From contig JAZROP010000020.1 of NCBI GenBank assembly GCA_045648785.1, positions 2,968-66,967 of the forward strand: 64,000 nucleotides of DNA, read 5' to 3'. The position numbers and the translations under genes were made by a program. Positions 49,513 through 62,737 of this stretch are shown here, piece by piece. Position 1 is the first letter of the stretch; every line of letters begins with the position of its first letter. The stretch is from Clostridia bacterium. Lineage in GTDB: Bacteria > Bacillota > Clostridia > RUG12999. The notes under the pieces are model-generated. The model did no database searches, was not told where the DNA came from, and saw only the letters and a list, made by a program, of their open reading frames with translations.

Positions 49513-52500
49513 TTATTTATAATATTTTACTGCCGAGGTGAAGATATTCATTTCATATTCGCCCTCAACATTCTTGTAAAGACCTGAGCCAATACGCTCT
49601 GAATGTCCCATTTTACCAAATACTCTGCCGTCGGGTGAAGTGATGCCTTCGATAGCATAGTCTGAGCCGTTGGGGTTAAAGCGAATATCGGATGTGGGGT
49701 TGCCGTCAAGGTCAACATACTGAGTAGCAACCTGACCATTTTCCGCTAACTTCTTAATGAGTTCTTCCGAAGCAATAAATCTGCCCTCCCCGTGAGAAAT
49801 GGGCACAGTGTAGATTTCGCCAGGCTGAGTCATAGAAAGCCAGGGAGATTTGTTTGATACAACTTTTGTGCGAACAAGTCTTGATTGGTGTCGCCCAATT
49901 ACATTATATGTAAGAGTCGGACAGTTTTCGTCAGTGTCAATGATTTCGCCAAAAGGAACAAGACCAAGCTTTATAAGTGCCTGGAAACCATTACAGATTC
50001 CACACATTAAACCGTCACGGTTTTTGAGAAGGTTGTGAACTTCTTCTTTAACGATAGCGTTGCGGAAGAAAGCTGTGATAAATTTGCCCGAACCATCAGG
50101 CTCGTCACCACCCGAGAAACCTCCCGGAATGAATATCATTTGTGCCTGCTTAACTCTTTCAGCAAAGTATTTTACAGAATTGTCAATACCTGCTGCAGAA
50201 AGGTTGTTGATAACAATAATTTCAGCTTCACCGCCAGCTCTTTCAACTGCCTTTGCCGAATCGTATTCGCAGTTTGTACCCGGGAATACAGGGATAAGTA
50301 CTTTAGGTGTAGCCACTTTTATGGTTGAAACTTGTTTTCCATACGCAGGCTTTGTTAGGTCAGGGATATTTTCCTTGCCGCCCGCTACATTATTGCAGGT
50401 GAAGACTGGTTCAAGCTTGTCTTCATAAATTTTGAGAAGTTCAGCAAGACAGAGGTTTTCTCCGCCCAGGCTAATAGCCGCTTTTTCGGTTGTTTTACCG
50501 AGCAGTGTGCCAACATTTGCATCGCCTGAAAGTTCAAGGATGAACGCGCCGTAGTTATAACCGAAGATTTCTTCTTTTGTAACATCAGCAAATTCAAAAC
50601 CGATGTTGTTACCGAATGCCATCTTCATTACAGCTTCAGCTACGCCGCCAATTCCGGGGGTGTAAGCCGATTTAACCTTGCCTTCGCGAACAAGTTTTGC
50701 AACTGTGTCATAAAGTGCCATTTCCGAATCTGCCACTGGCAGACCGTTTTTGTCATATTCGGGTTTAAGTAAAACTACATTATTTCCTGCCGACTTAAAT
50801 TCTGGGGAGATAATGTTCTTTGTTTTATCTGTTGTAACTGCAAAGGAAACGAGTGTGGGGGGAACATCAATGTTCTCAAAAGAGCCACTCATGGAGTCTT
50901 TGCCGCCGATTGCTGCGATAGAGTAATCCATTTGTGCACAAAAAGCACCAAGGAGAGCTGAAAGCGGTTTACCCCAGCGTTTGCCGTCTTTAAGCGGTTT
51001 TTCAAAATATTCCTGGAAAGTCAGGTAAACATCATTAAAATCCGCACCGGTTGCAATCAGCTTGGAAACAGATTCAACAACTGCAAGATATGCACTGTGA
51101 TAAGGGCTTTTTTCAGCAATAAACGGGTTATAACCCCAAGCCATAAGTGAACAGGTATCTGTGTCACCTTTTTCAAGGGAAACCTTGTTAACCATTGCCT
51201 GAGAGGGGGTAAGCTGATATTTACCACCGAAAGGCATGAGCACAGAGCCTGCTCCGATTGTGGAGTCAAAACGCTCGGAAAGTCCGCGTTTTGAACAGAT
51301 GTTAAGGTCGGATGCAAGTGCTTTCATTCCGTCTGTGAATGAATCAGGGATTTCCTTTGCAAATGACTCAGGAACAGCAGGAGCAATGTCAATATGCTTT
51401 TCAGCACCATTGGAATTTAAAAATTCTCTTGAAATGTTACAGATAGCCTTGCCGTTCCAGTTCATAACAAGACGAGGCTCTGCAGTAACTTTTGCAACGA
51501 TTGTTGCTTCAAGGTTTTCACTGTTTGCAAGCTCTATAAATCTTTCGGCATCCTCGGGAGCAACGGCAACAGCCATTCTTTCCTGAGATTCACTTATAGC
51601 AAGTTCTGTGCCGTCAAGACCGTCATATTTTTTGGGAACTGCATTAAGGTTTATTTCAAGACCGTCAGCAAGCTCGCCGATAGCAACGGACACACCGCCG
51701 GCACCGAAGTCGTTACAGCGTTTTATAAGCTGAGAAGCTTCTTTGTTGCGGAAAAGTCTCTGGAGCTTTCTTTCTTCGGGAGCATTACCTTTTTGAACTT
51801 CTGCACCGCAGGACTCAAGAGATTCGAGTGTGTGGGATTTTGAAGAACCTGTTGCACCGCCGCAGCCGTCACGGCCTGTTCTGCCGCCAAGGAGAATAAT
51901 AACATCTCCGGGAGCAGGTCTTTCTCTGCGAACATTTTCTTGAGGAGCTGCACCTACAACCGCACCAATTTCCATTCTCTTTGCAACATATCCGTCGTGG
52001 TAAATTTCATCTACCTGACCGGTTGCAAGACCAATCTGGTTACCATAAGAACTGTAGCCTGCCGCCGCAGTTGTAACAATTTTTCTCTGGGGAAGTTTAC
52101 CGGGGATTGTTTCTTCAAGCGGCTTTAAGGGGTCTGCCGCGCCCGTTACACGCATAGCACCATATACATAGCTTCTGCCTGAAAGCGGGTCACGGATTGC
52201 ACCGCCGATACAAGTAGCCGCACCACCAAAAGGCTCAATTTCTGTGGGGTGGTTATGAGTTTCGTTTTTGAAAAGCAGCAGCCAATCCTGATCATCGCCA
52301 TCTACATTGACGGTCATTTTAACTGTGCAGGCATTGATTTCTTCAGATTCGTCAAGCTTATCAAGCTTGCCTGTTTTTTTCAGATATTTTGCGGCAATTG
52401 TACCAATATCCATAAGATTTATGGGTTTTGTTCTGCCAATATCCTGACGGGTTTTAATATATCTGTCATATGCGTTTTGAAGAAGCTTATCTTCAAATTT

Positions 52501-53205
52501 AACGCTGTCGATGGTTGTTAAAAATGTTGTGTGACGGCAATGATCCGACCAGTATGTATCAATCATACGAATTTCAGTGATTGTGGGATTACGGTTTTCA
52601 GAAATAAAATACTGCTGGCAGAATTTTATATCGTCAAGATCCATTGCAAGTCCTAAAGTTTTAACAAAATCTGCAAGCTCCTTTTCGTCAAGAGAGGTAA
52701 AGCCGTCAAGTGTTTCAACTGATTCGGGAATTTCATAGCTTGCTTTAAGTGTTGAGAAAGTTTCGAGGGTTGCTTCTCTGCTTTCCACAGGGTTAATAAC
52801 ATATTTTTTTATAGCATCAACATCTTTGGAGGAGAGATTTCCGCTTAAAACAAAAACCTTTGCGGTGCGAACAGTAGGTCTGTCACCACAGGAAATAATC
52901 TGAATACACTGCGAAGCAGAGTCTGCTCTCTGGTCAAACTGACCGGGGAGATATTCTGTTGCAAACACCACTGCTCCGTCCACACTGGGCATTTCTGTTG
53001 AAATAATGTCAAGCTGAGGCTCAGAGAAAACAGCTGTGCAAGCATAATCAAACAAATCTTTTTCAATGTTTTCAACATCATATCTGTTAATTATGCGCAA
53101 GTCGGTCAGTTCTTTTATTCCAAGCAGGGACACAATATCATTTTTTAAAGCTCTTGCTTCGTGAGCAAGCTCTTTTTTCTTTTCTACATAAATTCTATAT
53201 ACCAT
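49513..53205 (-). CDS. purL: phosphoribosylformylglycinamidine synthase, large single-chain form (PurL with fused PurS-like and glutaminase domains)
   Basis: The likely start is MVYRIYVEKKKELA (a PurS-like N-terminus) at 53205. The product is about 1230 aa, with the FGAM synthetase core and a C-terminal class-I GATase (GICNGFQAL, SHGEGR). Confidence 0.9.
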   Translation of the reverse strand: MVYRIYVEKKKELAHEARALKNDIVSLLGIKELTDLRIINRYDVENIEKDLFDYACTAVFSEPQLDIISTEMPSVDGAVVFATEYLPGQFDQRADSASQCIQIISCGDRPTVRTAKVFVLSGNLSSKDVDAIKKYVINPVESREATLETFSTLKASYEIPESVETLDGFTSLDEKELADFVKTLGLAMDLDDIKFCQQYFISENRNPTITEIRMIDTYWSDHCRHTTFLTTIDSVKFEDKLLQNAYDRYIKTRQDIGRTKPINLMDIGTIAAKYLKKTGKLDKLDESEEINACTVKMTVNVDGDDQDWLLLFKNETHNHPTEIEPFGGAATCIGGAIRDPLSGRSYVYGAMRVTGAADPLKPLEETIPGKLPQRKIVTTAAAGYSSYGNQIGLATGQVDEIYHDGYVAKRMEIGAVVGAAPQENVRRERPAPGDVIILLGGRTGRDGCGGATGSSKSHTLESLESCGAEVQKGNAPEERKLQRLFRNKEASQLIKRCNDFGAGGVSVAIGELADGLEINLNAVPKKYDGLDGTELAISESQERMAVAVAPEDAERFIELANSENLEATIVAKVTAEPRLVMNWNGKAICNISREFLNSNGAEKHIDIAPAVPESFAKEIPDSFTDGMKALASDLNICSKRGLSERFDSTIGAGSVLMPFGGKYQLTPSQAMVNKVSLEKGDTDTCSLMAWGYNPFIAEKSPYHSAYLAVVESVSKLIATGADFNDVYLTFQEYFEKPLKDGKRWGKPLSALLGAFCAQMDYSIAAIGGKDSMSGSFENIDVPPTLVSFAVTTDKTKNIISPEFKSAGNNVVLLKPEYDKNGLPVADSEMALYDTVAKLVREGKVKSAYTPGIGGVAEAVMKMAFGNNIGFEFADVTKEEIFGYNYGAFILELSGDANVGTLLGKTTEKAAISLGGENLCLAELLKIYEDKLEPVFTCNNVAGGKENIPDLTKPAYGKQVSTIKVATPKVLIPVFPGTNCEYDSAKAVERAGGEAEIIVINNLSAAGIDNSVKYFAERVKQAQMIFIPGGFSGGDEPDGSGKFITAFFRNAIVKEEVHNLLKNRDGLMCGICNGFQALIKLGLVPFGEIIDTDENCPTLTYNVIGRHQSRLVRTKVVSNKSPWLSMTQPGEIYTVPISHGEGRFIASEELIKKLAENGQVATQYVDLDGNPTSDIRFNPNGSDYAIEGITSPDGRVFGKMGHSERIGSGLYKNVEGEYEMNIFTSAVKYYK

Positions 53206-53209
53206 AATC

Positions 53210-54475
53210 TTATCCTTTCGCCTTAAGCGCTTTTTGACCAATGTCTTTCCGATAGAATGCATTTTCAAAGGAAACTTTTTTTACTTCGTCATAAGCCTTT
53301 TCTATAGCTTTTTCAAGGCTTTCGGCAGTAGCTGTTACACCTAAAACTCTGCCGCCGCCCGAAAGTAGCTTTTCGCCATCAAGCTTTGCGCCTGCAACAT
53401 AAATTTCCGCCTCTGTTTCGGTGGGGAGAGTAATTTCGTAGCCTGTTTCGTACTTTCCGGGATAGCCGTTTGATGCCATGATGACACAACAAGCAGCACC
53501 GGATGAAAACTCAACCTTTGTATCTGCAAGGGTTTCGTTTTCAACTGCTTTCATAACCTCAAACAGGTCGGACTTTAAGAGTGGGAGAACAACCTGAGTT
53601 TCAGGGTCACCAAAACGACAGTTGTATTCAATAACCTTAGGACCGTTTGGGGTGAGCATAAGTCCGAAGTAGAGGCAGCCTTTAAAGGTTCTGCCCTCGG
53701 CGTTCATTGCGTTGATTGTAGGAAGAAAAATCTTTTCCATACATTCATTTGCAATAGCGTCGGTGTAATAGGGGTTGGGAGCAACCGTTCCCATGCCACC
53801 AGTGTTGAGTCCTTCGTCATTATCAAGTGCGCGTTTGTGGTCCATTGAGGAAATCATAGGAACAACAGTTTTACCGTCAGTAAACGATAAAACAGAAACC
53901 TCGGGACCTGTCAAAAATTCTTCTATAACGATTCTCGAACCGCTTTCACCAAAAACCTTGTCCTCCATCATGGATATAACCGCTGATTTGGCATCTTCTC
54001 TTGTTTCGGCAATGATAACGCCTTTGCCCAGCGCAAGTCCATCAGCTTTGATGACTGTGGGGATGGGTGCTGTTTCTAGATAAGAAAGAGCTTCGTTTTT
54101 ATCAGTAAAAATCTGATACTCTGCGGTAGGAATACCATATTTTTTCATAAGATTTTTTGAAAAAACCTTACTGCCTTCAATCTCAGCTGCCGCTTTTGAT
54201 GGACCAAAACAGGGGATACCTATTTCGCGTAGCCTGTCTGTTGCACCAAGAACAAGCGGGTCATCGGGAGCAACAACCGCAAATTTAATATCATTGTTTT
54301 TCGCAAAATCTACAATTCCGTCAATATCTTTTGCACCGATGCCGGTACAAATGGCGTCGGCGGCTATACCGCCGTTGCCAGGAAGAGCGTAAATTTCTGT
54401 AATTTCAGAACTTTTTTTAAGTGATTTTATAATAGCATGCTCGCGACCGCCGCCGCCCACAACCATTATTTTCAT
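53210..54475 (-). CDS. purD: phosphoribosylamine-glycine ligase
   Basis: The internal start MKIMVVGGGGREHAI follows a GGAGGAAT RBS. The ATP-grasp fold is present. Confidence 0.9.
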   Translation of the reverse strand: MKIMVVGGGGREHAIIKSLKKSSEITEIYALPGNGGIAADAICTGIGAKDIDGIVDFAKNNDIKFAVVAPDDPLVLGATDRLREIGIPCFGPSKAAAEIEGSKVFSKNLMKKYGIPTAEYQIFTDKNEALSYLETAPIPTVIKADGLALGKGVIIAETREDAKSAVISMMEDKVFGESGSRIVIEEFLTGPEVSVLSFTDGKTVVPMISSMDHKRALDNDEGLNTGGMGTVAPNPYYTDAIANECMEKIFLPTINAMNAEGRTFKGCLYFGLMLTPNGPKVIEYNCRFGDPETQVVLPLLKSDLFEVMKAVENETLADTKVEFSSGAACCVIMASNGYPGKYETGYEITLPTETEAEIYVAGAKLDGEKLLSGGGRVLGVTATAESLEKAIEKAYDEVKKVSFENAFYRKDIGQKALKAKG

Positions 54476-54491
54476 AGGTAATTCCTCCTGA

Positions 54492-55733
54492 TTATTCGTA
54501 GATGGGGAACTTTTCGCAAAGCTCAATTACTTCTTTTGTAACCTGGTCTTTTGTAGCTTCAAAATCGGAAGCAACCAGCTTAATCCAATGAGCAATTTTC
54601 TTCATTTCTTCTTCCTTGAAACCACGGGAAGTAACCGCAGGAGTACCTATACGGACACCACTTGTTACGAATGGGCTTTCGGGGTCATTGGGAATTGTAT
54701 TTTTGTTTGCTGTAATATGAACTTCATCAAGACGATGTTCCATTTCTTTGCCTGTGATGCCAAAAGGACGAAGGTCAAGAAGCATCAGATGATTGTCTGT
54801 GCCACCGGATACAATATCGAATCCTTCTCTAATAAATTCCTCGGATAAAACTTTAGCATTTTTAATAATCTGTTTCTGATATTCTTTGAATTCGTCAGTT
54901 AATGCTTCGCCGAAAGCAACTGCTTTAGCGGCAATAATATGCATAAGAGGTCCGCCTTGAATTCCGGGGAATATAGCTTTGTCAATCTGTTTTGCATATT
55001 CTTCTTTACAAAGGATAAGACCACCTCTGGGACCGCGCAGAGTTTTATGAGTTGTTGTTGTTACAACATCTGCATAGGGAACAGGAGATGGATGGAGTCC
55101 TGCGGCAACAAGACCGGCAATGTGAGCAATGTCAACCATCATGATTGCGCCAACTTCGTCACAGATTTCACGAATTTTTGCAAAGTCAATAGTTCTTGCA
55201 TAAGCACTTGCGCCCGAGACAATCATTTTGGGTTTACATTCAAGTGCGATTTCACGCATTTTATCATAGTCAATTCTGCCTGTTTCATCATCAACGCCGT
55301 AAGGAACGATGTTGAAATATTTACCTGAAATATTGACAGGGCTGCCGTGAGAAAGGTGACCACCGTGAGCGAGATTCATACCCATAACGGTATCGCCCGG
55401 CTGAAGGAAAGCAAAGAATACTGCAAGGTTAGCATTAGCACCGCTGTGAGGCTGAACATTCGCATGTTCAGCACCGAACAGCTTTTTAGCTCTTTCTCTT
55501 GCAATTTCTTCAACTTCATCAACATGGATACAACCGCCGTAATAGCGTTTGCCCGGATAGCCTTCTGCATATTTGTTTGTCAGAACACCGCCGGCAGCAA
55601 GAAGTACTGCTTCTGATACAATGTTTTCGGAAGCTATAAGTTCAATGTTATGTTTCTGACGGGAAAGTTCTCTGTCGCAAGCAGCAAAAACTTCACTGTC
55701 ATAATTTTTAAGCTGGTCAAAAAATTTACTCAT
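54492..55733 (-). CDS. glyA: serine hydroxymethyltransferase
   Basis: It has LIASENIVS and [14 protein letters not shown], the PLP-lysine region. The product is 413 aa. Confidence 0.9.
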
Positions 55734-55752
55734 TTTCTAATCTCCTTATATA

Positions 55753-56940
55753 TTAATGATGAAACAATCTCATGTGTGTGAATGCCATTGATATGCCAAG
55801 CTTGTTGCAAGCGTCAATTACAAGCTGGTCACGAATGGAGCCACCCGGCTGTGCGATGTATGTTACGCCACTTTTTGCAGCTCGTTCAATATTATCACTG
55901 AATGGGAAGAAAGCATCTGAACCTAATGCAACATCCTTAATGCTATTAAGGTAAGCATCCTTTTCTTCTTTAGTGAAAGGCTCAGGCTGAACCTTAAAGA
56001 ACTGCTGCCAGTTGCCGTCTGCCAGTACATGGTCCGCATCAAAATCGGAAATGTAAAGGTCAATACAGTTATCTCTGTCAGGTCTGCCAATTTCATCAAG
56101 GAAAGGTAGATTTAAAACTTTGTCGTGCTGACGGAGATGCCAGTTATCAGCTTTCTGTCCGGCAAGTCTTGTACAGTGAATTCGTGACTGCTGACCTGCA
56201 CCTACGCCGATTGCCTGACCGTCTGCAGCAAAGCATACAGAGTTAGACTGAGTATATTTAAGTGTGATAAGTGCAACTATAAGGTTTCTGATTGCACTTT
56301 CGGGGAGTTCTTTATTTTCTGTAACAATTTCTGTAAGCAGTTCGCGGTTTATTTCAAAATCGTTTCTGCCCTGTTCAAATGTGATTCCGAAAACCTGTTT
56401 GCGTTCAATGGGATCAGGAATATAATTTTCGTCTATTTTTACAATGTTGTATGTGCCTTTTCTTTTGCTTTTTAAAATTTCAAGAGCCTCATCTGTATAT
56501 CCGGGAGCGATAACACCATCGGAAACCTCTCTTGCAATAAGAGAAGCGGTTACCTTGTCACACTCGTCAGATAAAGCAATCCAGTCACCGAAAGAACTCA
56601 TTCTGTCAGTACCCCTTGCACGGGCATAGGCCAGAGCGAGAGGAGAAGAATCAAGGTCTGCAATATCATCAACAAAGCAGGCTTTCTTGAGTTTATCGCT
56701 CATTGGCAGGCCGAGTGCCGCGGAAGTAGGACTTACATGTTTAAATGATGTAGCACATGGAATACCGAGCGCTGCTTTTAAATCACGAACGAGTAGCCAG
56801 CTGTTAAATGCATCAAGAAAGTTGATGTATCCGGGTTTGCCATTTAAGATTTCAACCGGCAGGTCGCTTCCGTCGTGCATATAAATTCTTGAGGGTTTCT
56901 GATTGGGATTACAACCGTATTTAAGTTCAAAAGAGTTCAT
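55753..56940 (-). CDS. purH: AICAR transformylase-only PurH (no MGS-like IMP cyclohydrolase domain)
   Basis: The product is 395 aa and corresponds only to the AICARFT domain of bifunctional PurH (FKHVSPTSAALG, DAFFPFSD, IAQPGGSIRD). The N-terminal ~200-aa IMPCH/MGS domain is absent. Confidence 0.8.
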   Translation of the reverse strand: MNSFELKYGCNPNQKPSRIYMHDGSDLPVEILNGKPGYINFLDAFNSWLLVRDLKAALGIPCATSFKHVSPTSAALGLPMSDKLKKACFVDDIADLDSSPLALAYARARGTDRMSSFGDWIALSDECDKVTASLIAREVSDGVIAPGYTDEALEILKSKRKGTYNIVKIDENYIPDPIERKQVFGITFEQGRNDFEINRELLTEIVTENKELPESAIRNLIVALITLKYTQSNSVCFAADGQAIGVGAGQQSRIHCTRLAGQKADNWHLRQHDKVLNLPFLDEIGRPDRDNCIDLYISDFDADHVLADGNWQQFFKVQPEPFTKEEKDAYLNSIKDVALGSDAFFPFSDNIERAAKSGVTYIAQPGGSIRDQLVIDACNKLGISMAFTHMRLFHH

Positions 56941-57671
56941 TATCGAAGTCCTCCTTCATGTTTATTTACTATTCTTGTGTCAATTTTACCTGTTTTAAGG
57001 TTTGTGAAACGGACAAACATAGAAATTTTATTGTTTTCATCAAGAGCTTCCCAAACTTTTTTTGTAAGCTCATCAATATCGTTTGGAAGAGAAATTCTCT
57101 CGGGTTCGCCTGTGAAGGTGGGAAGAGGATTTCCATCACAGTTATAAGTATGAATAAAATGACCTACTCCTGCGATTGCTGGATAAGTAAAGGTGTATCT
57201 GCTGCAAGCTGTGCCCTCAGCGTCTGCACTTTTTAAAATATTCATTTTATAAGTAAAATCATTATTTACAAACTCAAGCATACCGCTGATTCTGGGTGTG
57301 AAGTTGGGCGCATCAGGCTCAAATTCGCGAGTATCAAGTGCCGCCTCAAAGCTTTCACCTTTAGCAAGATGGTCATAAACTGTATCAGTTTGGTCGCCGT
57401 TTGTTACGATTAGTTTGTTTTCAAATTTTCTCACAGGAGAATAAATGATAAGCGAAGGGTCAGAAACCTTGCTTTCATCAAAAGGATAAATGGTGATATC
57501 TTCACCGTTTACTTTAAAAACTCTGTTCCTTGAGTTTTCGCTTCTGCCCATGATAAAGTAGATAGCAACTGCATTTTCACCGTCGGCAGTTTTGCCAATT
57601 GCAATACCTCTGCCTGGATATGTATTGTCTTTTAACAAGTCTAAAAGACAATATGTCTGATATACATTCAT
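56940..57671 (-). CDS. purO: PurO-type (archaeal-like, PF07826) IMP cyclohydrolase
   Basis: From the internal Met (MNVYQTY...), the motifs YPGRGIAIGKT...IVTNGDQTD parallel PurO YLGRILAVGRN...VVSNGSHTD. The ATG overlaps the purN stop in an ATGA arrangement, and the stop overlaps the purH ATG. Confidence 0.7.
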   Translation of the reverse strand: MNVYQTYCLLDLLKDNTYPGRGIAIGKTADGENAVAIYFIMGRSENSRNRVFKVNGEDITIYPFDESKVSDPSLIIYSPVRKFENKLIVTNGDQTDTVYDHLAKGESFEAALDTREFEPDAPNFTPRISGMLEFVNNDFTYKMNILKSADAEGTACSRYTFTYPAIAGVGHFIHTYNCDGNPLPTFTGEPERISLPNDIDELTKKVWEALDENNKISMFVRFTNLKTGKIDTRIVNKHEGGLR

Positions 57672-58270
57672 TTTTTCTTCTCCTTTACAATCTGTTTTGA
57701 TACAAGCTCGCATGCTTTGGGTAGTATAATCCATTCAGCCTGCTGCATAACGCGTTTCTGCAAGGTTTCAGGAGTATCTTTTGGACGGATTTTAACAGCT
57801 TTTTGTGCAATGATTTTTCCTCCGTCAGGAATTTCGTTTACAAAATGAACGGTTGCACCCGTAACCTTAACGCCGTATTTAAGTGCTTCTTCATGAACTT
57901 TAAGTCCATAATACCCTTTTCCGCAGAAAGAGGGGATAAGTGCCGGATGAACATTAATGATACGATTTGCAAAACGGGAGGTAAATTTCTTGGAGAGAAT
58001 TTTCATAAATCCCGCAAGAACAATCAAATCAATTTTTTCATCTTCTAATTTTTTTATAAGTTTATCCTCAAAATCAGGAGCCTTGGACGGAATAACCGCG
58101 GTGGCAATGTCGGCATTTTTTGCACGGGTGAGAGCATAGGCTTCCGGATTGCCCGAAAGGACAAGGGAAATTTCACCGCTTTTTATAACGCCGCTTTTTT
58201 GAGCATCTATCATTGCCTGCAGATTAGTTCCTCCACCCGAAACGAGGACTGCAATTTTTGCTTTCATCAT
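57668..58270 (-). CDS. purN: phosphoribosylglycinamide formyltransferase
   Basis: [15 protein letters not shown] is the GART N-terminus, and a formyl-transferase fold follows. Confidence 0.85.
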
Positions 58271-59301
58271 ATAATAACTCCTGCATCGCCTTTAACGATT
58301 TCTCCAATGATGTAAGCGTCTTCACCTGCAGATTTAAGAATTTCGAGAGATTTTGCCGCATCCTCTGCCGAAACAACAATGCTCATGCCAACGCCCATAT
58401 TAAAGGTGTTGAACATATCGCGCTCAGGAATGTTTCCACGCTTTGCAATAAGGTCGAAAATGGGAAGGATTTTAAGGGCAGATTTATCAATCTTAGCGGA
58501 ATAGCCGTCCGGCAGACTGCGCGGAATATTTTCGTAAAAGCCTCCGCCAGTGATGTGAGAAATTGCCTTAACTCTAACTTCGTCTAAAAGTGCAAGTACA
58601 GGTTTTACATAAATTTTTGTAGGAGTGAGAAGTGTTTCTCCAATGGATTTGCCGCCAAGCTCAGCGAGAGGACTGGTGATGTCGCCATTTTCAACATCAA
58701 GCACTTTTCTTACAAGAGAAAAACCATTTGAGTGAACACCGGACGAGGGAAGTGCAATTATAACATCACCCTCTGTTACAGTGGAGTTATCTAAAATTTT
58801 ATCTTTGTCAACCACGCCCGTGGAATAACCTGCAAGGTCATATTCGTTTTCAGGATAAAATCCGGGCATTTCAGCAGTTTCACCACCGATTAAAGCTGCA
58901 CCTGCCTGAACACAGCCCTCAGCTACACCAGATACGATTGCAGCAACTCTTTCGGGACAGTTTTTACCCACTGCTATGTAGTCAAGGAAAAAGAGAGGTT
59001 TTGCACCGCTGCAGATAATATCGTTAACGCACATTGCAACGCAGTCGATACCTACGGTATCATGCTTGTCCATTTTAAATGCTATTTTAAGTTTTGTACC
59101 AACGCCGTCAGTACCGCTTACAAGAACAGGTTTATTTATTCCTTCAAGGTCAAGCTCAAACAGACCGCCAAAACCGCCTATTCCGCTTAAAACCCCGGGA
59201 GTAACAGTTCTTGCAATATGGGTTTTCATAAGCTCAACTGCTTTGTAGCCGGCAGTAATGTCAACCCCGGCATTTTTATAACTTTCGCTAAAACTTTTCA
59301 T
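58267..59301 (-). CDS. purM: phosphoribosylformylglycinamidine cyclo-ligase (AIR synthetase)
   Basis: SYKNAGVDI...GIGGFGG is the PurM signature. Confidence 0.9.
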
Positions 59302-59331: not shown

Positions 59332-60777
59332 TTATTCTTTACCATTCCAACAATAAGTGCAAAGCTGACTTTCGTCAAGACCTATTGACTTTATAATGCC
59401 TTCCAATGATTGGAATTCCAATGATGCAAATTTGAGTTTTTCGCAAATTCTTTTTCTTAAGTTTTTTCCACGCTCTGTTGCAGAGTCGCTGTATTCGCTG
59501 ATGTAATTTAGTCCATCTTCACCCTCAAGCTCTACGATAATTTGGCGAGCGATAAGCTCCATTTCGCTTGTGGCACGAGAAAAATTGAGATATTTGCAAG
59601 CATACATTATGGGAGGACATGCAGAACGCATGTGCACCGATTTTGCTCCGTTTTCATAAAGAAAATCAACAGTTCCTTTAAGTTGGGTTCCCCGAACAAT
59701 GGAATCATCAACGAAAAGAAGATTTTTATCCTGAATAAGCTCGTGTACAGGGATTTGTTTCATTCTTGCAACCTTTGTTCTTTCCTTCTGACTTGCAGGA
59801 GTAAAGCTTCTCATCCAGGTTGGAGTATATTTGATGAAAGGTCTTGCAAAAGGAATTTTGCTTTCGTTAGCATATCCGATTGCGTGGGGGGTTCCCGAAT
59901 CGGGTACGCCACCGACATAATCAACATTTTCTGCGTTGCCTACCTTTTTATCGTGCTCTGCCATAATCTGACCGTTGCGGTATCTCATTGCCTCAACATT
60001 AATGCCTTCATAACAGGAAGTGGGATAACCATAGTAGCTCCACAAAAAAGCACATATTTTCATTTTATCTCCCGGAGGATTAAGTTGAGTAACGCCATCA
60101 AGAGTTATTTCAACAATTTCACCCGGGCCGAGTTCTTTTTCTAATTCATAACCAAGCTTCTGATACGCAAACGACTCAAAAGAAACGCAGTAGCCGCTTT
60201 CTTTTTTGCCGATTAAAATAGGAAGTCTGCCAAGACGGTCTCTTGCAGCAATAAGGGTTCCGTCGTTTTTTAGTATCAGGATTGAGGCAGATCCGTCAAT
60301 AACGCTCTGTGCAAATTTAATTCCATCAACGAAGCTCGATTTCTGGTTAATAAGTGCGGCAACAAGGTCGGTGGAATTTATTTTGCCACCTGTCATTGTG
60401 CCAAAATGACCGCCGGATGAAATATATTTTTCAATCAGTTCTTCGGCATTGTTGATCATGCCGATGGTTGTAATGGCATAAATGCCAACATTTGAACGGA
60501 TTAAAAGAGGTTGCGGGTCAGTATCGCTTATACAGCCGATAGCTGATTTGCCGCGCATTTCCTCGAAAATGTGTTCAAACTTAGTTCTGAAAGGAGAGTT
60601 TTCGATGTTGTGTATATCTCTTTGCAGACCAATTTCAGGGTCATAAGCTGCCATACCGCCCCTGCGTGTACCCAGGTGAGAATGATAGTCTGTACCAAAA
60701 AAAACATCTGAAATTGCATCCTCTTTACATATTGCTCCAAAAAAGCCGCCCATAAATTTCTGTACCTTTCTGCCCAC
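59332..60777 (-). CDS. purF: amidophosphoribosyltransferase-like protein (PRTase domain intact; N-terminal glutaminase domain atypical)
   Basis: The C-terminal PRTase motifs are present (GVPDSG, LLFVDDSIVRGTQ). The N-terminal region aligns to the PurF Ntn domain (FFGTDYHSHLGTRRGGMA vs YYGLHSLQHRGQEGAGIV), but the residue aligned to the Cys1 nucleophile is Gly (MGGFFGAI vs CGVFGIWG). The alternative internal start is at 60753. Confidence 0.8.
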   Translation of the reverse strand: MGRKVQKFMGGFFGAICKEDAISDVFFGTDYHSHLGTRRGGMAAYDPEIGLQRDIHNIENSPFRTKFEHIFEEMRGKSAIGCISDTDPQPLLIRSNVGIYAITTIGMINNAEELIEKYISSGGHFGTMTGGKINSTDLVAALINQKSSFVDGIKFAQSVIDGSASILILKNDGTLIAARDRLGRLPILIGKKESGYCVSFESFAYQKLGYELEKELGPGEIVEITLDGVTQLNPPGDKMKICAFLWSYYGYPTSCYEGINVEAMRYRNGQIMAEHDKKVGNAENVDYVGGVPDSGTPHAIGYANESKIPFARPFIKYTPTWMRSFTPASQKERTKVARMKQIPVHELIQDKNLLFVDDSIVRGTQLKGTVDFLYENGAKSVHMRSACPPIMYACKYLNFSRATSEMELIARQIIVELEGEDGLNYISEYSDSATERGKNLRKRICEKLKFASLEFQSLEGIIKSIGLDESQLCTYCWNGKE

Positions 60778-60842
60778 GGTAGATTGTTTTATTAAACGAA
60801 CATACGCCTCTTGCCGCGGGCGGGCAGGGGCGTATGGTAATA

Positions 60843-61337
60843 TTAATTGTTGTATTTTTGCGAAACAGTTGAGTCTGCATCAAGAACTTTTGAAGCTGCC
60901 AATTTTCTTTGAGCATCAAGCTTTGCAGCCAGAGCTGAATCGGAAACTGAAAGAATTTGCATTGCGAGAAGTGCTGCGTTTACAGCACCATCAATTGCAA
61001 CTGTGGCAACAGGAATTCCTGATGGCATCTGAACAGTTGATAAAAGAGCATCCAGTCCGTCAAGAGTAGATGATTTAACAGGCAAACCTATAACAGGCAG
61101 CGTTGTACAAGCCGCTACCGCACCTGCAAGATGAGCCGCCTTACCTGCGGCAGCTATGATAACACCAAAATCGTTTGCTCTGGCGTTTTCTGTAAATTCG
61201 CGAACCTGCTGCGGAGTACGATGAGCCGAATATACATGAACCTCACAGGGAACTGAAAAATCTTTTAAAGTATTAATAGCTTTTTCAACAATGGGTAAGT
61301 CGCTGTCGCTACCCATGAGAATACCAACTTTTTTCAT
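60843..61337 (-). CDS. purE: phosphoribosylaminoimidazole carboxylase catalytic subunit / class-II PurE type (no purK present)
   Basis: The internal start MKKVGILMGSDSDLPIVEKA is the PurE signature. It is the first gene after the leader. Confidence 0.85.
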   Translation of the reverse strand: MKKVGILMGSDSDLPIVEKAINTLKDFSVPCEVHVYSAHRTPQQVREFTENARANDFGVIIAAAGKAAHLAGAVAACTTLPVIGLPVKSSTLDGLDALLSTVQMPSGIPVATVAIDGAVNAALLAMQILSVSDSALAAKLDAQRKLAASKVLDADSTVSQKYNN

Positions 61338-61364
61338 TTGTAAACACAACCTTTCTGAAAGATT

Positions 61365-61400
61365 AAAAAGGGCAGACCTATACTGCTATAGATCTGCCCA
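61365..61400 (-). terminator. leader intrinsic terminator (riboswitch expression platform) upstream of purE
   Basis: On the minus strand, gggcagatctatag-cag-tataggtctgccc is followed by UUUUU. The 5' arm overlaps the 3' pseudoknot strand of the aptamer. Confidence 0.6.
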
Positions 61401-61466
61401 GACGGTCGACATTTTTATATTTTTTGCTCCCCGGCAGTTACAATCTGCCAAATCCGTCAGTTGCAA
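61394..61466 (-). promoter_or_regulatory. ZTP (pfl-motif) riboswitch aptamer in the pur operon leader
   Basis: The minus-strand RNA reads uugcaa-CUGACGG-[P2 hairpin ggcag-auuguaa-cugcc]-GGGGAGCaa-(19-nt linker)-CCGUCUGGGCAG. Against the pfl consensus GACUGGCG...P2...GGGGAGCG...CCGCCUGGGCA, the pseudoknot pair GACGG/CCGUC covaries with consensus GGCG/CGCC. Confidence 0.65.
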
Positions 61467-61493
61467 AAAACAGTAAAATATTATTATAAGTAT

Positions 61494-61626: not shown

Positions 61627-62547
61627 TTAGTCTGCATTAATGGAAAGCAGGTCGAAAATTTCTGCTGTTACATAAGTTTTGGAATCAACAATTACAGGGA
61701 AGTTTTCTTCTTTCTGACCTTCGAACATTGCTTCACCAATTTTTATTCTTACAATGTTTTTTGTTTTGCCCGCAATATCAATGCTCCAGTCAGCATCGTT
61801 CCAGTTTACTGTGTAACCGAGAGTTTCCAGAACATGTCGGAGAGGAAGTCTACGAGCGGAAGCATCGTCAAAAAGTGCAGAGTCAGCATATTCAAAGGTG
61901 TGCTCACCAACTACAACTTCATTTTCGTTTTTTACTTCTTCTGCAAGAGAAAGAACTGCAATTTTTTCAGCAGGAACATGAGCAGGGAGGCTCATACCTA
62001 CAACTGATGAAAATGCAACAATTTCAGAACCGGGAGTAATATCTGAAGCTTTCAGTGCAATTCTGATTTTGTGTGCGATTACAGGAGTTTCGTCTGTGTA
62101 AACGATTTTGTTATTACCATCTTTTGAGAAAATCTCGCCCTTTTCATTTGTATCCACAACTGCATAAATGGGAGCAGAAGAGGATTTTTCTGTATTTACA
62201 AACACATAATATGCATATGCCTGAGGGGGAAGACTTCTTGTTGTCATAGAACTTGCTACAACTGTTACAGCATCGTCTTTTTTAATTGTTTCAACAGGGT
62301 TTAAGTCGTAATCGCAGATGTAAGTATTCTCGTCCATATTGAACTGAAATTCTTTTTCGCCGATAACAATGGAGCCTTCATTTACTTCAGTTACAACACC
62401 GTTGTAAGAAATTTTTGTGTCTGCTACTTCAACTTTTTCTTCTGCTTCAGAAATGAGCATGATGTCATTTTTTACAGTTTCAGTTGCATAAGCAGCTGGG
62501 ATGAGTGCGAGCATAGCCGCGAGTGATAAAGAAATAAATTTTTTCAT
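61627..62547 (-). CDS. secreted protein with C-terminal copper-amine-oxidase-like N-terminal domain (Cu_amine_oxidN1)
   Basis: The internal start MKKFISLSLAAMLALIPAAYA is a signal peptide after a GGAGAAT RBS. The C-terminal VLETLGYTVNWNDADWSIDIAG...KTYVTAEIFDLL matches the PF07833 stalk domain common in Clostridia. Confidence 0.55.
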   Translation of the reverse strand: MKKFISLSLAAMLALIPAAYATETVKNDIMLISEAEEKVEVADTKISYNGVVTEVNEGSIVIGEKEFQFNMDENTYICDYDLNPVETIKKDDAVTVVASSMTTRSLPPQAYAYYVFVNTEKSSSAPIYAVVDTNEKGEIFSKDGNNKIVYTDETPVIAHKIRIALKASDITPGSEIVAFSSVVGMSLPAHVPAEKIAVLSLAEEVKNENEVVVGEHTFEYADSALFDDASARRLPLRHVLETLGYTVNWNDADWSIDIAGKTKNIVRIKIGEAMFEGQKEENFPVIVDSKTYVTAEIFDLLSINAD

Positions 62548-62737
62548 TTTTCTATTCTCCTTTTTTGTTTTTCTGTATGTAATACTTGCCGGAATGGCAA
62601 AAGGTTGCATGGAGTTAAAAAATTTTTTAAGTTTGACAAAGAATTTACTGTATGCTATAATTAAAAACTGGAATTACATATATTATTGTATATTTTTTGT
62701 CCGGATAAATCAAGTACTAAAAACGGAGAGTTGAGCC

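Follow-up and report, generated by a model that had tools for sequence, protein, structure and literature searches.

Can a PurF that lacks its catalytic cysteine still start purine synthesis and, if so, where does its nitrogen come from? This question is raised by a 64,000-nucleotide stretch of the Clostridia bacterium contig JAZROP010000020.1 (assembly GCA_045648785.1, positions 2,968 to 66,967; hereafter the window), which carries a purine operon with a Cys-less purF, for which we use the shorthand purF*. PurF commits the cell to de novo purine synthesis in a step that is under feedback control, and it is a textbook N-terminal nucleophile (Ntn) amidotransferase with an ammonia channel. What is new, judging from the sequence, is a PurF fold without the very feature by which PurF counts as a glutamine amidotransferase. 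We propose that purF* probably encodes a functional PurF isozyme that makes phosphoribosylamine (PRA) from phosphoribosyl pyrophosphate (PRPP) and free NH3. Unless stated otherwise, residue numbers refer to the 473-amino-acid protein that starts at the ATG.

Loss of the glutaminase site

The gene and the parts of its N-terminal domain that bear on the question are as follows.

59332 to 60753, minus strand: purF*, 473 amino acids plus stop, with an ATG at 60753-60751 as the homologue-supported start
60748 to 60750, minus strand: Gly2 codon GGC, at the Cys1 nucleophile position of canonical PurF in the phmmer and MAFFT register
60064 to 60753, minus strand: N-terminal Ntn-amidotransferase-like domain (approximately residues 1-230), identified by GATase_7 (32.6 bits), structure prediction with Foldseek and conservation; fold retained, glutaminase residues gone
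60652 to 60702, minus strand: FFGTDYHSHLGTRRGGM (residues 18-34) in place of YYGLHSLQHRGQEGAGI; Arg26 replaced by Leu27, with D22, Y23 and H26 nearly invariant
60505 to 60543, minus strand: AIGCISDTDPQPL (residues 71-83), what is left of the glutamine loop after an 8-residue deletion; Ser76 nearly invariant
60448 to 60471, minus strand: TTIGMINN (residues 95-102) in place of AHNGNLVN; Asn101 replaced by Ile97, Gly kept

A preliminary description of this locus had opened the gene at position 60777, where the minus-strand open reading frame (59332 to 60777) begins with GTG. This upstream in-frame start finds no support among homologues. MGGFFG forms the N-terminus in 118 of 120 close homologues, which places the true start of purF* at the ATG 60753-60751; an ATG at this point is the start codon in 77 of 79 species-representative loci, and a GAAAGG lies approximately 12 nucleotides 5' of it. 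When all Protein Data Bank (PDB) sequences were searched with phmmer, PurF was the only family matched, with the B. subtilis enzyme (1ao0/1gph) as the nearly full-length top hit (E 2.5e-40). In this alignment, query G11 (481-amino-acid numbering; the second Gly of MGGFFG) pairs with Gly2 of mature B. subtilis PurF, so that Gly2 of purF* occupies the position of the Cys1 nucleophile. The same register was recovered when the protein was aligned by MAFFT to 24 diverse relatives (32-63% identical) and to the PurF proteins of E. coli and B. subtilis, and glycine is found at this position in all 217 close homologues as well as in 119 of 121 proteins of the Muribaculaceae branch. The glycine that the preliminary description had read at the Cys1 position is therefore borne out. 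Its further remark that the only nearby cysteine, Cys9 of ICKED, is out of register also holds: this residue is replaced by Ser in 163 of the 217 homologues, which rules it out as a displaced nucleophile.

Could the missing cysteine be an artefact, that is, a misread base or misassembly in the Cys codon, an incorrect start that hides a propeptide and its Cys, or a decaying pseudogene? GGC and TGC are one base apart, and the reading frame can be extended to the upstream GTG. The preliminary description had asked for the base call to be re-checked, and the Gly2 codons of 79 species-representative genomes (GGA 33, GGT 23, GGC 22, GGG 1) settle this point: four synonymous codons across 79 species indicate that the amino acid is selected and exclude a shared base-call error. 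An upstream start with a propeptide-Cys was ruled out as well, since the in-frame sequence 5' of the start contains no Cys behind any start codon before it runs into purE. With an intact reading frame, purifying selection on both domains (see below) and Gly in 217 of 217 homologues, we regard the chance of an artefact as negligible.

Two observations concern the spacer between purE and purF* (60778-60842, minus strand). It contains a GC-rich hairpin (ACGCC...GGCGT), which was rejected as a candidate regulatory RNA (z = -0.96 versus shuffles, no Rfam match). On the contig of a close relative, the equivalent spacer had been annotated as coding, which gave protein P0001 a spurious N-terminus; the long extension is a gene-calling artefact, as the matching window sequence lies in another frame.

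For the remaining glutamine-site residues (Arg26, Arg73, Tyr74, Asn101-Gly102 and Asp127) and for Cys1 itself, we take the roles to be those assigned in the structural literature on E. coli and B. subtilis PurF, with Tyr74 as the coupling residue. Across the 24 diverse members, the Cys1 equivalent is G, S, T, A, D or K. The Arg26 equivalent is Leu27 (Leu in 19 of 24), and an 8-residue deletion present in every one of the 24 takes out Arg73, Tyr74 and Thr76. AHNGNL pairs with T95-T96-I97-G98-M99-I100: the oxyanion Asn101 corresponds to Ile97, a variable position in the clade, and Gly102 is retained as Gly98. The Asp127 equivalent is likewise variable. The preliminary description had claimed the loss of Cys1 and the replacement of the oxyanion-hole motif, both of which stand. 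The extent of the loss is wider than it stated, comprising Arg26 (now Leu), the deleted Arg73 and Tyr74, and the non-conserved Asp127.

In place of these residues, a different set is nearly invariant among the 24 members: D22 (21/24), H26 (22/24) and S76 (22/24), together with Y23 and N126. Ser76 sits right after the strand that held Arg73. In these members, mean conservation of the five segments of the former glutamine site is 0.62, a value that none of 5000 random segment sets attained; the remainder of the N-domain stands at 0.47 and the C-domain at 0.55. That the pocket was rebuilt and has stayed the same since is an argument that this part of the N-domain still serves a role.

One such role would be a new amide-hydrolyzing site, for instance a Ser76-His26-Asp22 triad, that takes NH3 from an amide such as glutamine or asparagine; the protein would in that case still be an amidotransferase, with its active site invented anew. 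The near-invariance of these three residues at 32-63% identity, the pocket segments as the best-conserved part of the N-domain and the placement of S76 directly behind the former Arg73 strand would all fit such a site. However, the residues that bind the carboxylate and amino groups of glutamine, Arg73 and Asp127, are deleted or variable, the oxyanion Asn is gone too, and H26 is no more than the inherited His25 of the HRG motif. We also know of no precedent for a Ser-His-Asp-type site in Ntn amidotransferases, and consider a hydrolytic pocket quite unlikely. The reading that we prefer, and that the preliminary description had listed among its options, is direct use of free NH3.

An intact phosphoribosyltransferase in a distinct clade

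The features of the C-terminal half are listed here.

59335 to 60063, minus strand: C-terminal type-I phosphoribosyltransferase (PRTase) domain (residues 231-473), identified by profiles, alignment and Foldseek
59683 to 59715, minus strand: PRPP-binding loop FVDDSIVRGTQ (residues 347-357), with D350 and S351 invariant in the clade
60052 to 60054 (C234) and 59596 to 59598 (C386), minus strand: equivalents of two Fe-S ligands, by alignment
59350 to 59361, minus strand: C465-x-x-C468 (CTYC), aligned to the B. subtilis Fe-S ligands Cys437 and Cys440
59458 to 59553, minus strand: clade-specific insertion of approximately 30 residues (around 401-432) that is predicted to form two helices and has no counterpart in PurF of E. 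coli or B. subtilis

Fold and profile comparisons place the purF* protein with PurF, whose reaction product it very probably shares. An AlphaFold2 model built on the alignment of the 24 diverse members reached a predicted local distance difference test (pLDDT) score of 92.8 and a predicted template modelling (TM) score (pTM) of 0.91. Its best Foldseek matches are all PurF (1ao0_A, 6lbp_A, 1ecb; TM 0.81-0.86 over the full length), with GlmS and GFAT far behind. No solved structure of any clade member was found among the PDB sequences by phmmer. The profile searches that the preliminary description had suggested gave a graded picture: the protein scores above the gathering cutoff of Pfam GATase_7 (32.6 versus 25 bits) and below that of GATase_6 (18.1 versus 27) as well as the curated equivalog cutoff of TIGR01134 (171.7 versus 350; E 3.4e-50). 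TIGR01134 is nevertheless by far the best NCBIfam match, and no other NCBIfam model suits the protein.

The preliminary description had called the PRTase domain canonical. This is correct for the PRPP motifs and does not extend to the insertion of approximately 30 residues. K308 and R315, the equivalents of the flexible-loop residues Lys326 and Arg332, are present in 24 of 24 diverse members, as are D350 and S351 of the PRPP loop, in which D349 is D or E and VRGT is retained. The cysteines predicted from sequence alone to ligate a [4Fe-4S] cluster are equally stable (C234, C386 and C468 in 24/24, C465 in 23/24); we take the corresponding B. subtilis ligands to be Cys236, Cys382, Cys437 and Cys440. 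In the 217 close homologues, mean conservation is 0.825 for the N-domain and 0.855 for the C-domain. Purifying selection thus acts on both domains, and the N-domain is not decaying. The presumption that the gene is functional gains support from this equal conservation, from the invariant PRPP and Fe-S residues and from the operon position described below.

How far does this form of PurF extend? When 1.84 billion cluster representatives (50% clustering) were searched exhaustively, 649 proteins were matched at E <= 1e-30. Of the best 150 of these, 84 have a recognizable N-terminus, in which the Cys1 position is occupied by G (48), S (19), T (5), A (3), D (3) or other residues (4). Cys occurs in only two of the 84, one of them a chimera and the other, P0269, a separate loop-deleted type. 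P0269 keeps the propeptide-Cys and LQHRGQ, has the 8-residue glutamine-loop deletion (no Arg73/Tyr74) and Ser at Asn101, and is without the 30-residue C-domain insertion. An evolutionary intermediate is one possibility for this protein, a third type of PurF another. Clade members have in common GTDYHSHLG in place of LQHRGQ and a C-terminal C-x-x-C-W-x-G. They occur in metagenome-assembled genomes of gut and rumen Clostridia (Monoglobales, Acutalibacteraceae, Oscillospiraceae, Congzhengia, Christensenella), in Muribaculaceae including cultured isolates, and on archaeal contigs, where the gene adjoins those for PolD, Cdc6 or ribosomal protein S8e. A profile search for taxonomic breadth returned the same Clostridia branch only. 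On two archaeal contigs (L085, 1299-6297; L169, 3429-8386), purF* stands directly after the gene for the large subunit of DNA polymerase D (PolD) and before a TctA-family gene, a conserved synteny unrelated to purine genes.

purF* therefore belongs to a distinct, large and divergent PurF subfamily with shared indels and a remodelled, conserved pocket. This bears out one of the options named in the preliminary description, a distinct PurF-like clade, given the low TIGR01134 score, the shared indels and the many 50%-cluster representatives with G, S, T or A at the Cys1 position. Public annotation of the clade proteins reads plainly amidophosphoribosyltransferase, and we found no curated model that describes the clade. 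Nor did we find a description of it in the full-text literature, the coverage of which is incomplete, so that an earlier mention may exist elsewhere; the paper on the Fibro-purF riboswitch nowhere mentions cysteine. Apparently, the clade has not been described so far.

One operon slot for two forms of purF

In 80 species loci of purF* taken from GTDB genomes, the order purE-(purC)-purF*-purM-purN-purO-purH-purD is found in 80 of 80, as far as the contigs reach. The Cys-less gene is the only purF of the operon in 78 of them. A tblastn search of the 64-kb window with E. coli, B. subtilis and Clostridial canonical PurF likewise revealed no second purF, which confirms, within these limits, that purF* is the operon's only one. 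In the two remaining species loci (L005, 6001-8941; L023, 4645-6767), a canonical purF directly follows purF*; its product has the propeptide-Cys-GVFG N-terminus, LQHRGQ, GHVRYGT, AHNGNL and TADTEV. A metagenome contig (L133) shows the reverse order, canonical purF and then purF*. These tandem pairs likely mark gene replacement under way, or else genomes that truly have two isozymes.

When we scanned metagenomes with the tandem canonical protein, 80 loci were obtained, and those contigs that reach the flanking genes show the same operon in related gut Clostridia, with a Cys1 purF in the same slot. The flanking Pur proteins of canonical and Cys-less operons are similarly close to those of the window (PurM, median 73% versus 76%; PurH, 73% versus 75%). 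A PurM neighbour-joining tree of 118 operons requires at least 14 switches of purF type compared to a mean of 38 for shuffled types, a rough count from a single gene. Close relatives thus exist in three states (canonical only, both, Cys-less only), the pattern expected of repeated in-place replacement by an isofunctional enzyme. Distant members also occur beside purine genes, as purL-purF* in Muribaculaceae and as purF*-purN-purD.

The same loci bear on a further explanation, also raised in the preliminary description, namely that NH3 is supplied in trans by a separate glutaminase subunit, as PurQ does for PurL. Split amidotransferases do occur in this pathway (PurL/PurQ/PurS), and the conserved remodelled pocket and the 30-residue insertion could form a docking surface. 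However, neither the window nor the 80 Clostridia loci, nor the Muribaculaceae and archaeal loci, have a conserved separate glutaminase gene beside purF*. The operons contain no extra conserved gene, and the sole glutaminase domain of the window's operon is fused within PurL. We therefore judge a partner glutaminase to be very unlikely.

Alternatively, the purF* product could be a non-catalytic or regulatory paralogue, or another PRPP-dependent enzyme. PRA would then come from a canonical PurF whose gene lies elsewhere and which may form a hetero-oligomer with the purF* product. The tandem pairs in L005, L023 and L133 and the TIGR01134 score below the cutoff are compatible with this idea, and the survey for a second purF covers the 64-kb window. 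On the other hand, neither the residues of the PRPP site nor the Fe-S ligands vary, 78 of 80 species loci hold purF* alone in the purine operon, and canonical-only relatives with the same slot and repeated switches point to replacement rather than partnership. In addition, purF* appears to be co-regulated with the whole pathway by a riboswitch. We consider this explanation unlikely, and a catalytically active PurF remains the reading that we favour.

The window's operon runs from the riboswitch through purE, purF*, purM, purN, a purO-like gene, a purH with only the 5-aminoimidazole-4-carboxamide ribonucleotide formyltransferase (AICARFT) domain, glyA and purD to a fused purL. The riboswitch belongs to the class named after the mono- and triphosphates of 5-aminoimidazole-4-carboxamide riboside (ZMP/ZTP).

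61522-61494, minus strand: promoter-like site TTGACA-17-TATACT
61389 to 61474, minus strand: ZMP/ZTP riboswitch aptamer, operon leader (RF01750, 62.4 bits; gathering score 39)
61370 to 61399, minus strand: terminator-like hairpin and T-run that overlap the aptamer's 3' end, likely the expression platform
60843 to 61349, minus strand: purE, the gene immediately before purF*, with its probable ATG at 61337
49513 to 59301, minus strand: part of the operon downstream of purF*, purM to fused purL
58267-59301, minus strand: purM
57668-58270, minus strand: purN
56940-57734, minus strand: purO-like gene
55753-56940, minus strand: AICARFT-only purH
54492-55733, minus strand: glyA
53210-54526, minus strand: purD
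49513-53268, minus strand: fused purL

The whole unit from purE to purL, including glyA, appears to be under the control of ZTP and folate status. The last two purine steps are split between the AICARFT-only PurH (395 amino acids; NF005492, 664.9 bits) and the 264-amino-acid PurO-like reading frame, a pair kept across 160 related operons. The latter scores 58.9 bits, below the cutoff of 150 for archaeal IMP cyclohydrolase, which makes it a divergent bacterial PurO-type cyclohydrolase. glyA, encoding serine hydroxymethyltransferase, stands between purH and purD in a minority of relatives (4 of 80 purF* loci and 2 of 80 loci of the canonical scan). Upstream of the operon, a reading frame of 327 amino acids (61627-62610, minus strand) has no NCBIfam match at E <= 1e-5 and is followed by a terminator-like hairpin (61615-61587).

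Proposed reaction and comparison with known systems

If purF* encodes an ammonia-dependent PurF, its conserved PRTase site would convert PRPP and NH3 to 5-phosphoribosylamine and pyrophosphate, and NH3 would come in by way of the former glutamine pocket, which is remodelled and has a shortened loop. The Ntn domain persists as a folded and conserved unit with its glutaminase machinery completely gone, and the C-terminal domain, with its predicted [4Fe-4S] site, would stay competent for PRPP binding. Taken together, the alignments, models and operon comparisons suggest that catalytic activity, ammonia as the donor and entry via the remodelled pocket are the most likely state of affairs. The Asp/Tyr/Ser/His set of the pocket resembles ammonium-binding sites of other proteins, and one may speculate that D22, Y23, H26, S76 and N126 form a port for ammonium binding or deprotonation. 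Published work lends plausibility to such a scheme: E. coli PurF with Cys1 replaced loses the use of glutamine and still uses ammonia, according to the account of Mei & Zalkin 1989 given in PMC3261824, and PRPP amidotransferase is reported to take ambient NH3, for which entry via the glutamine site has been proposed (PMC12017579).

The sampled habitats are the human, ruminant, rabbit and chicken gut. Gut and rumen are ammonia-rich and energy-limited, and direct use of ammonia spares the ATP of glutamine synthesis, so that skipping this synthesis would be an advantage there. Extending the proposal, we suggest tentatively, and with less than even confidence, that purF* represents a dedicated class of ammonia-dependent PurF that could be the sole or main route to PRA in much of the gut and rumen microbiota (Clostridia lineages and Muribaculaceae) and in several archaeal lineages, its D22/Y23/H26/S76/N126 pocket having been rebuilt for the capture of ammonium and its entry into the ancestral channel.

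Several points weigh against ammonia-dependent synthesis by purF* alone. A canonical Cys1 purF stands in tandem with purF* in L005, L023 and L133; both forms can therefore coexist, and purF* may not suffice on its own. Given such relatives, a second purF may also lie elsewhere in the genome from which the window was taken. Canonical PurF has a high Km for NH3, and efficient use of ammonia would need adaptation. Finally, the pocket is more conserved than a structural relic would need to be, and could serve a function other than the entry of ammonia.

If the proposal is correct, the committed purine step is uncoupled from glutamine in the organisms that carry purF*. Models of nitrogen flow in dominant gut anaerobes would change, with ammonia feeding purines and one ATP saved per PRA. 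The failure of TIGR01134 to capture these proteins would be explained, and there would be a case for a separate family model and a separate Enzyme Commission (EC) treatment. The clade would further provide a natural experiment on the roles of the Ntn domain and channel after catalysis is lost, as well as a selective target by which these organisms differ from their hosts and from canonical-PurF bacteria. The repeated swaps of two purF forms in one operon slot make the question testable by complementation.

Among known systems, the closest is the B. subtilis-type [4Fe-4S] PurF (1AO0/1GPH; TIGR01134). It shares with the purF* protein the Ntn and type-I PRTase domains at TM 0.82-0.85 and 30% identity over the full length, the DDSIVRGT loop, the flexible-loop Lys and Arg and the four Fe-S cysteines, and its gene occupies the same position in the Firmicute-style operon, between purE/purC and purM. 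In contrast, the purF* protein is without the propeptide, Cys1, Arg26, Arg73, Tyr74, Asn101 and Asp127, and it has the 8-residue deletion in the glutamine loop and the insertion of approximately 30 residues in the C-domain. E. coli PurF differs from it in having no Fe-S cluster.

Precedents for the loss of glutamine use exist in other families. AsnB-family beta-lactam synthetase and carbapenam synthetase keep the Ntn fold, are without Cys1 and do not use glutamine, and both AsnA and NadE without a glutaminase domain are ammonia-dependent isozymes that replace glutamine-dependent ones. Unlike purF*, these systems have other synthase domains and other chemistry, and to our knowledge none of them acts at the committed purine step.

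The nearest published remark concerns Mlab_0150, an archaeal paralogue of PurF in which Ser occupies the active-site position; it came to notice through comparative genomics and is suspected not to act as a glutamine amidotransferase (PMC3261824). This protein, which we compare by its description only, is likewise a PurF homologue without Cys1, and in the wider purF* clade Ser is also the residue most often seen at this position. In contrast to purF*, it is described as having arisen by recent duplication of the canonical purF of the same organism, with which it coexists. The E. coli Cys1 mutants, as far as the citation of Mei & Zalkin 1989 in PMC3261824 describes them, are the laboratory equivalent of what is apparently the natural state of the clade. 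Apart from Cys1, the glutamine site of these mutants is unchanged, as is their coupling loop, whereas the purF* clade has remodelled the whole pocket and conserved the new version, which suggests adaptation rather than simple loss.

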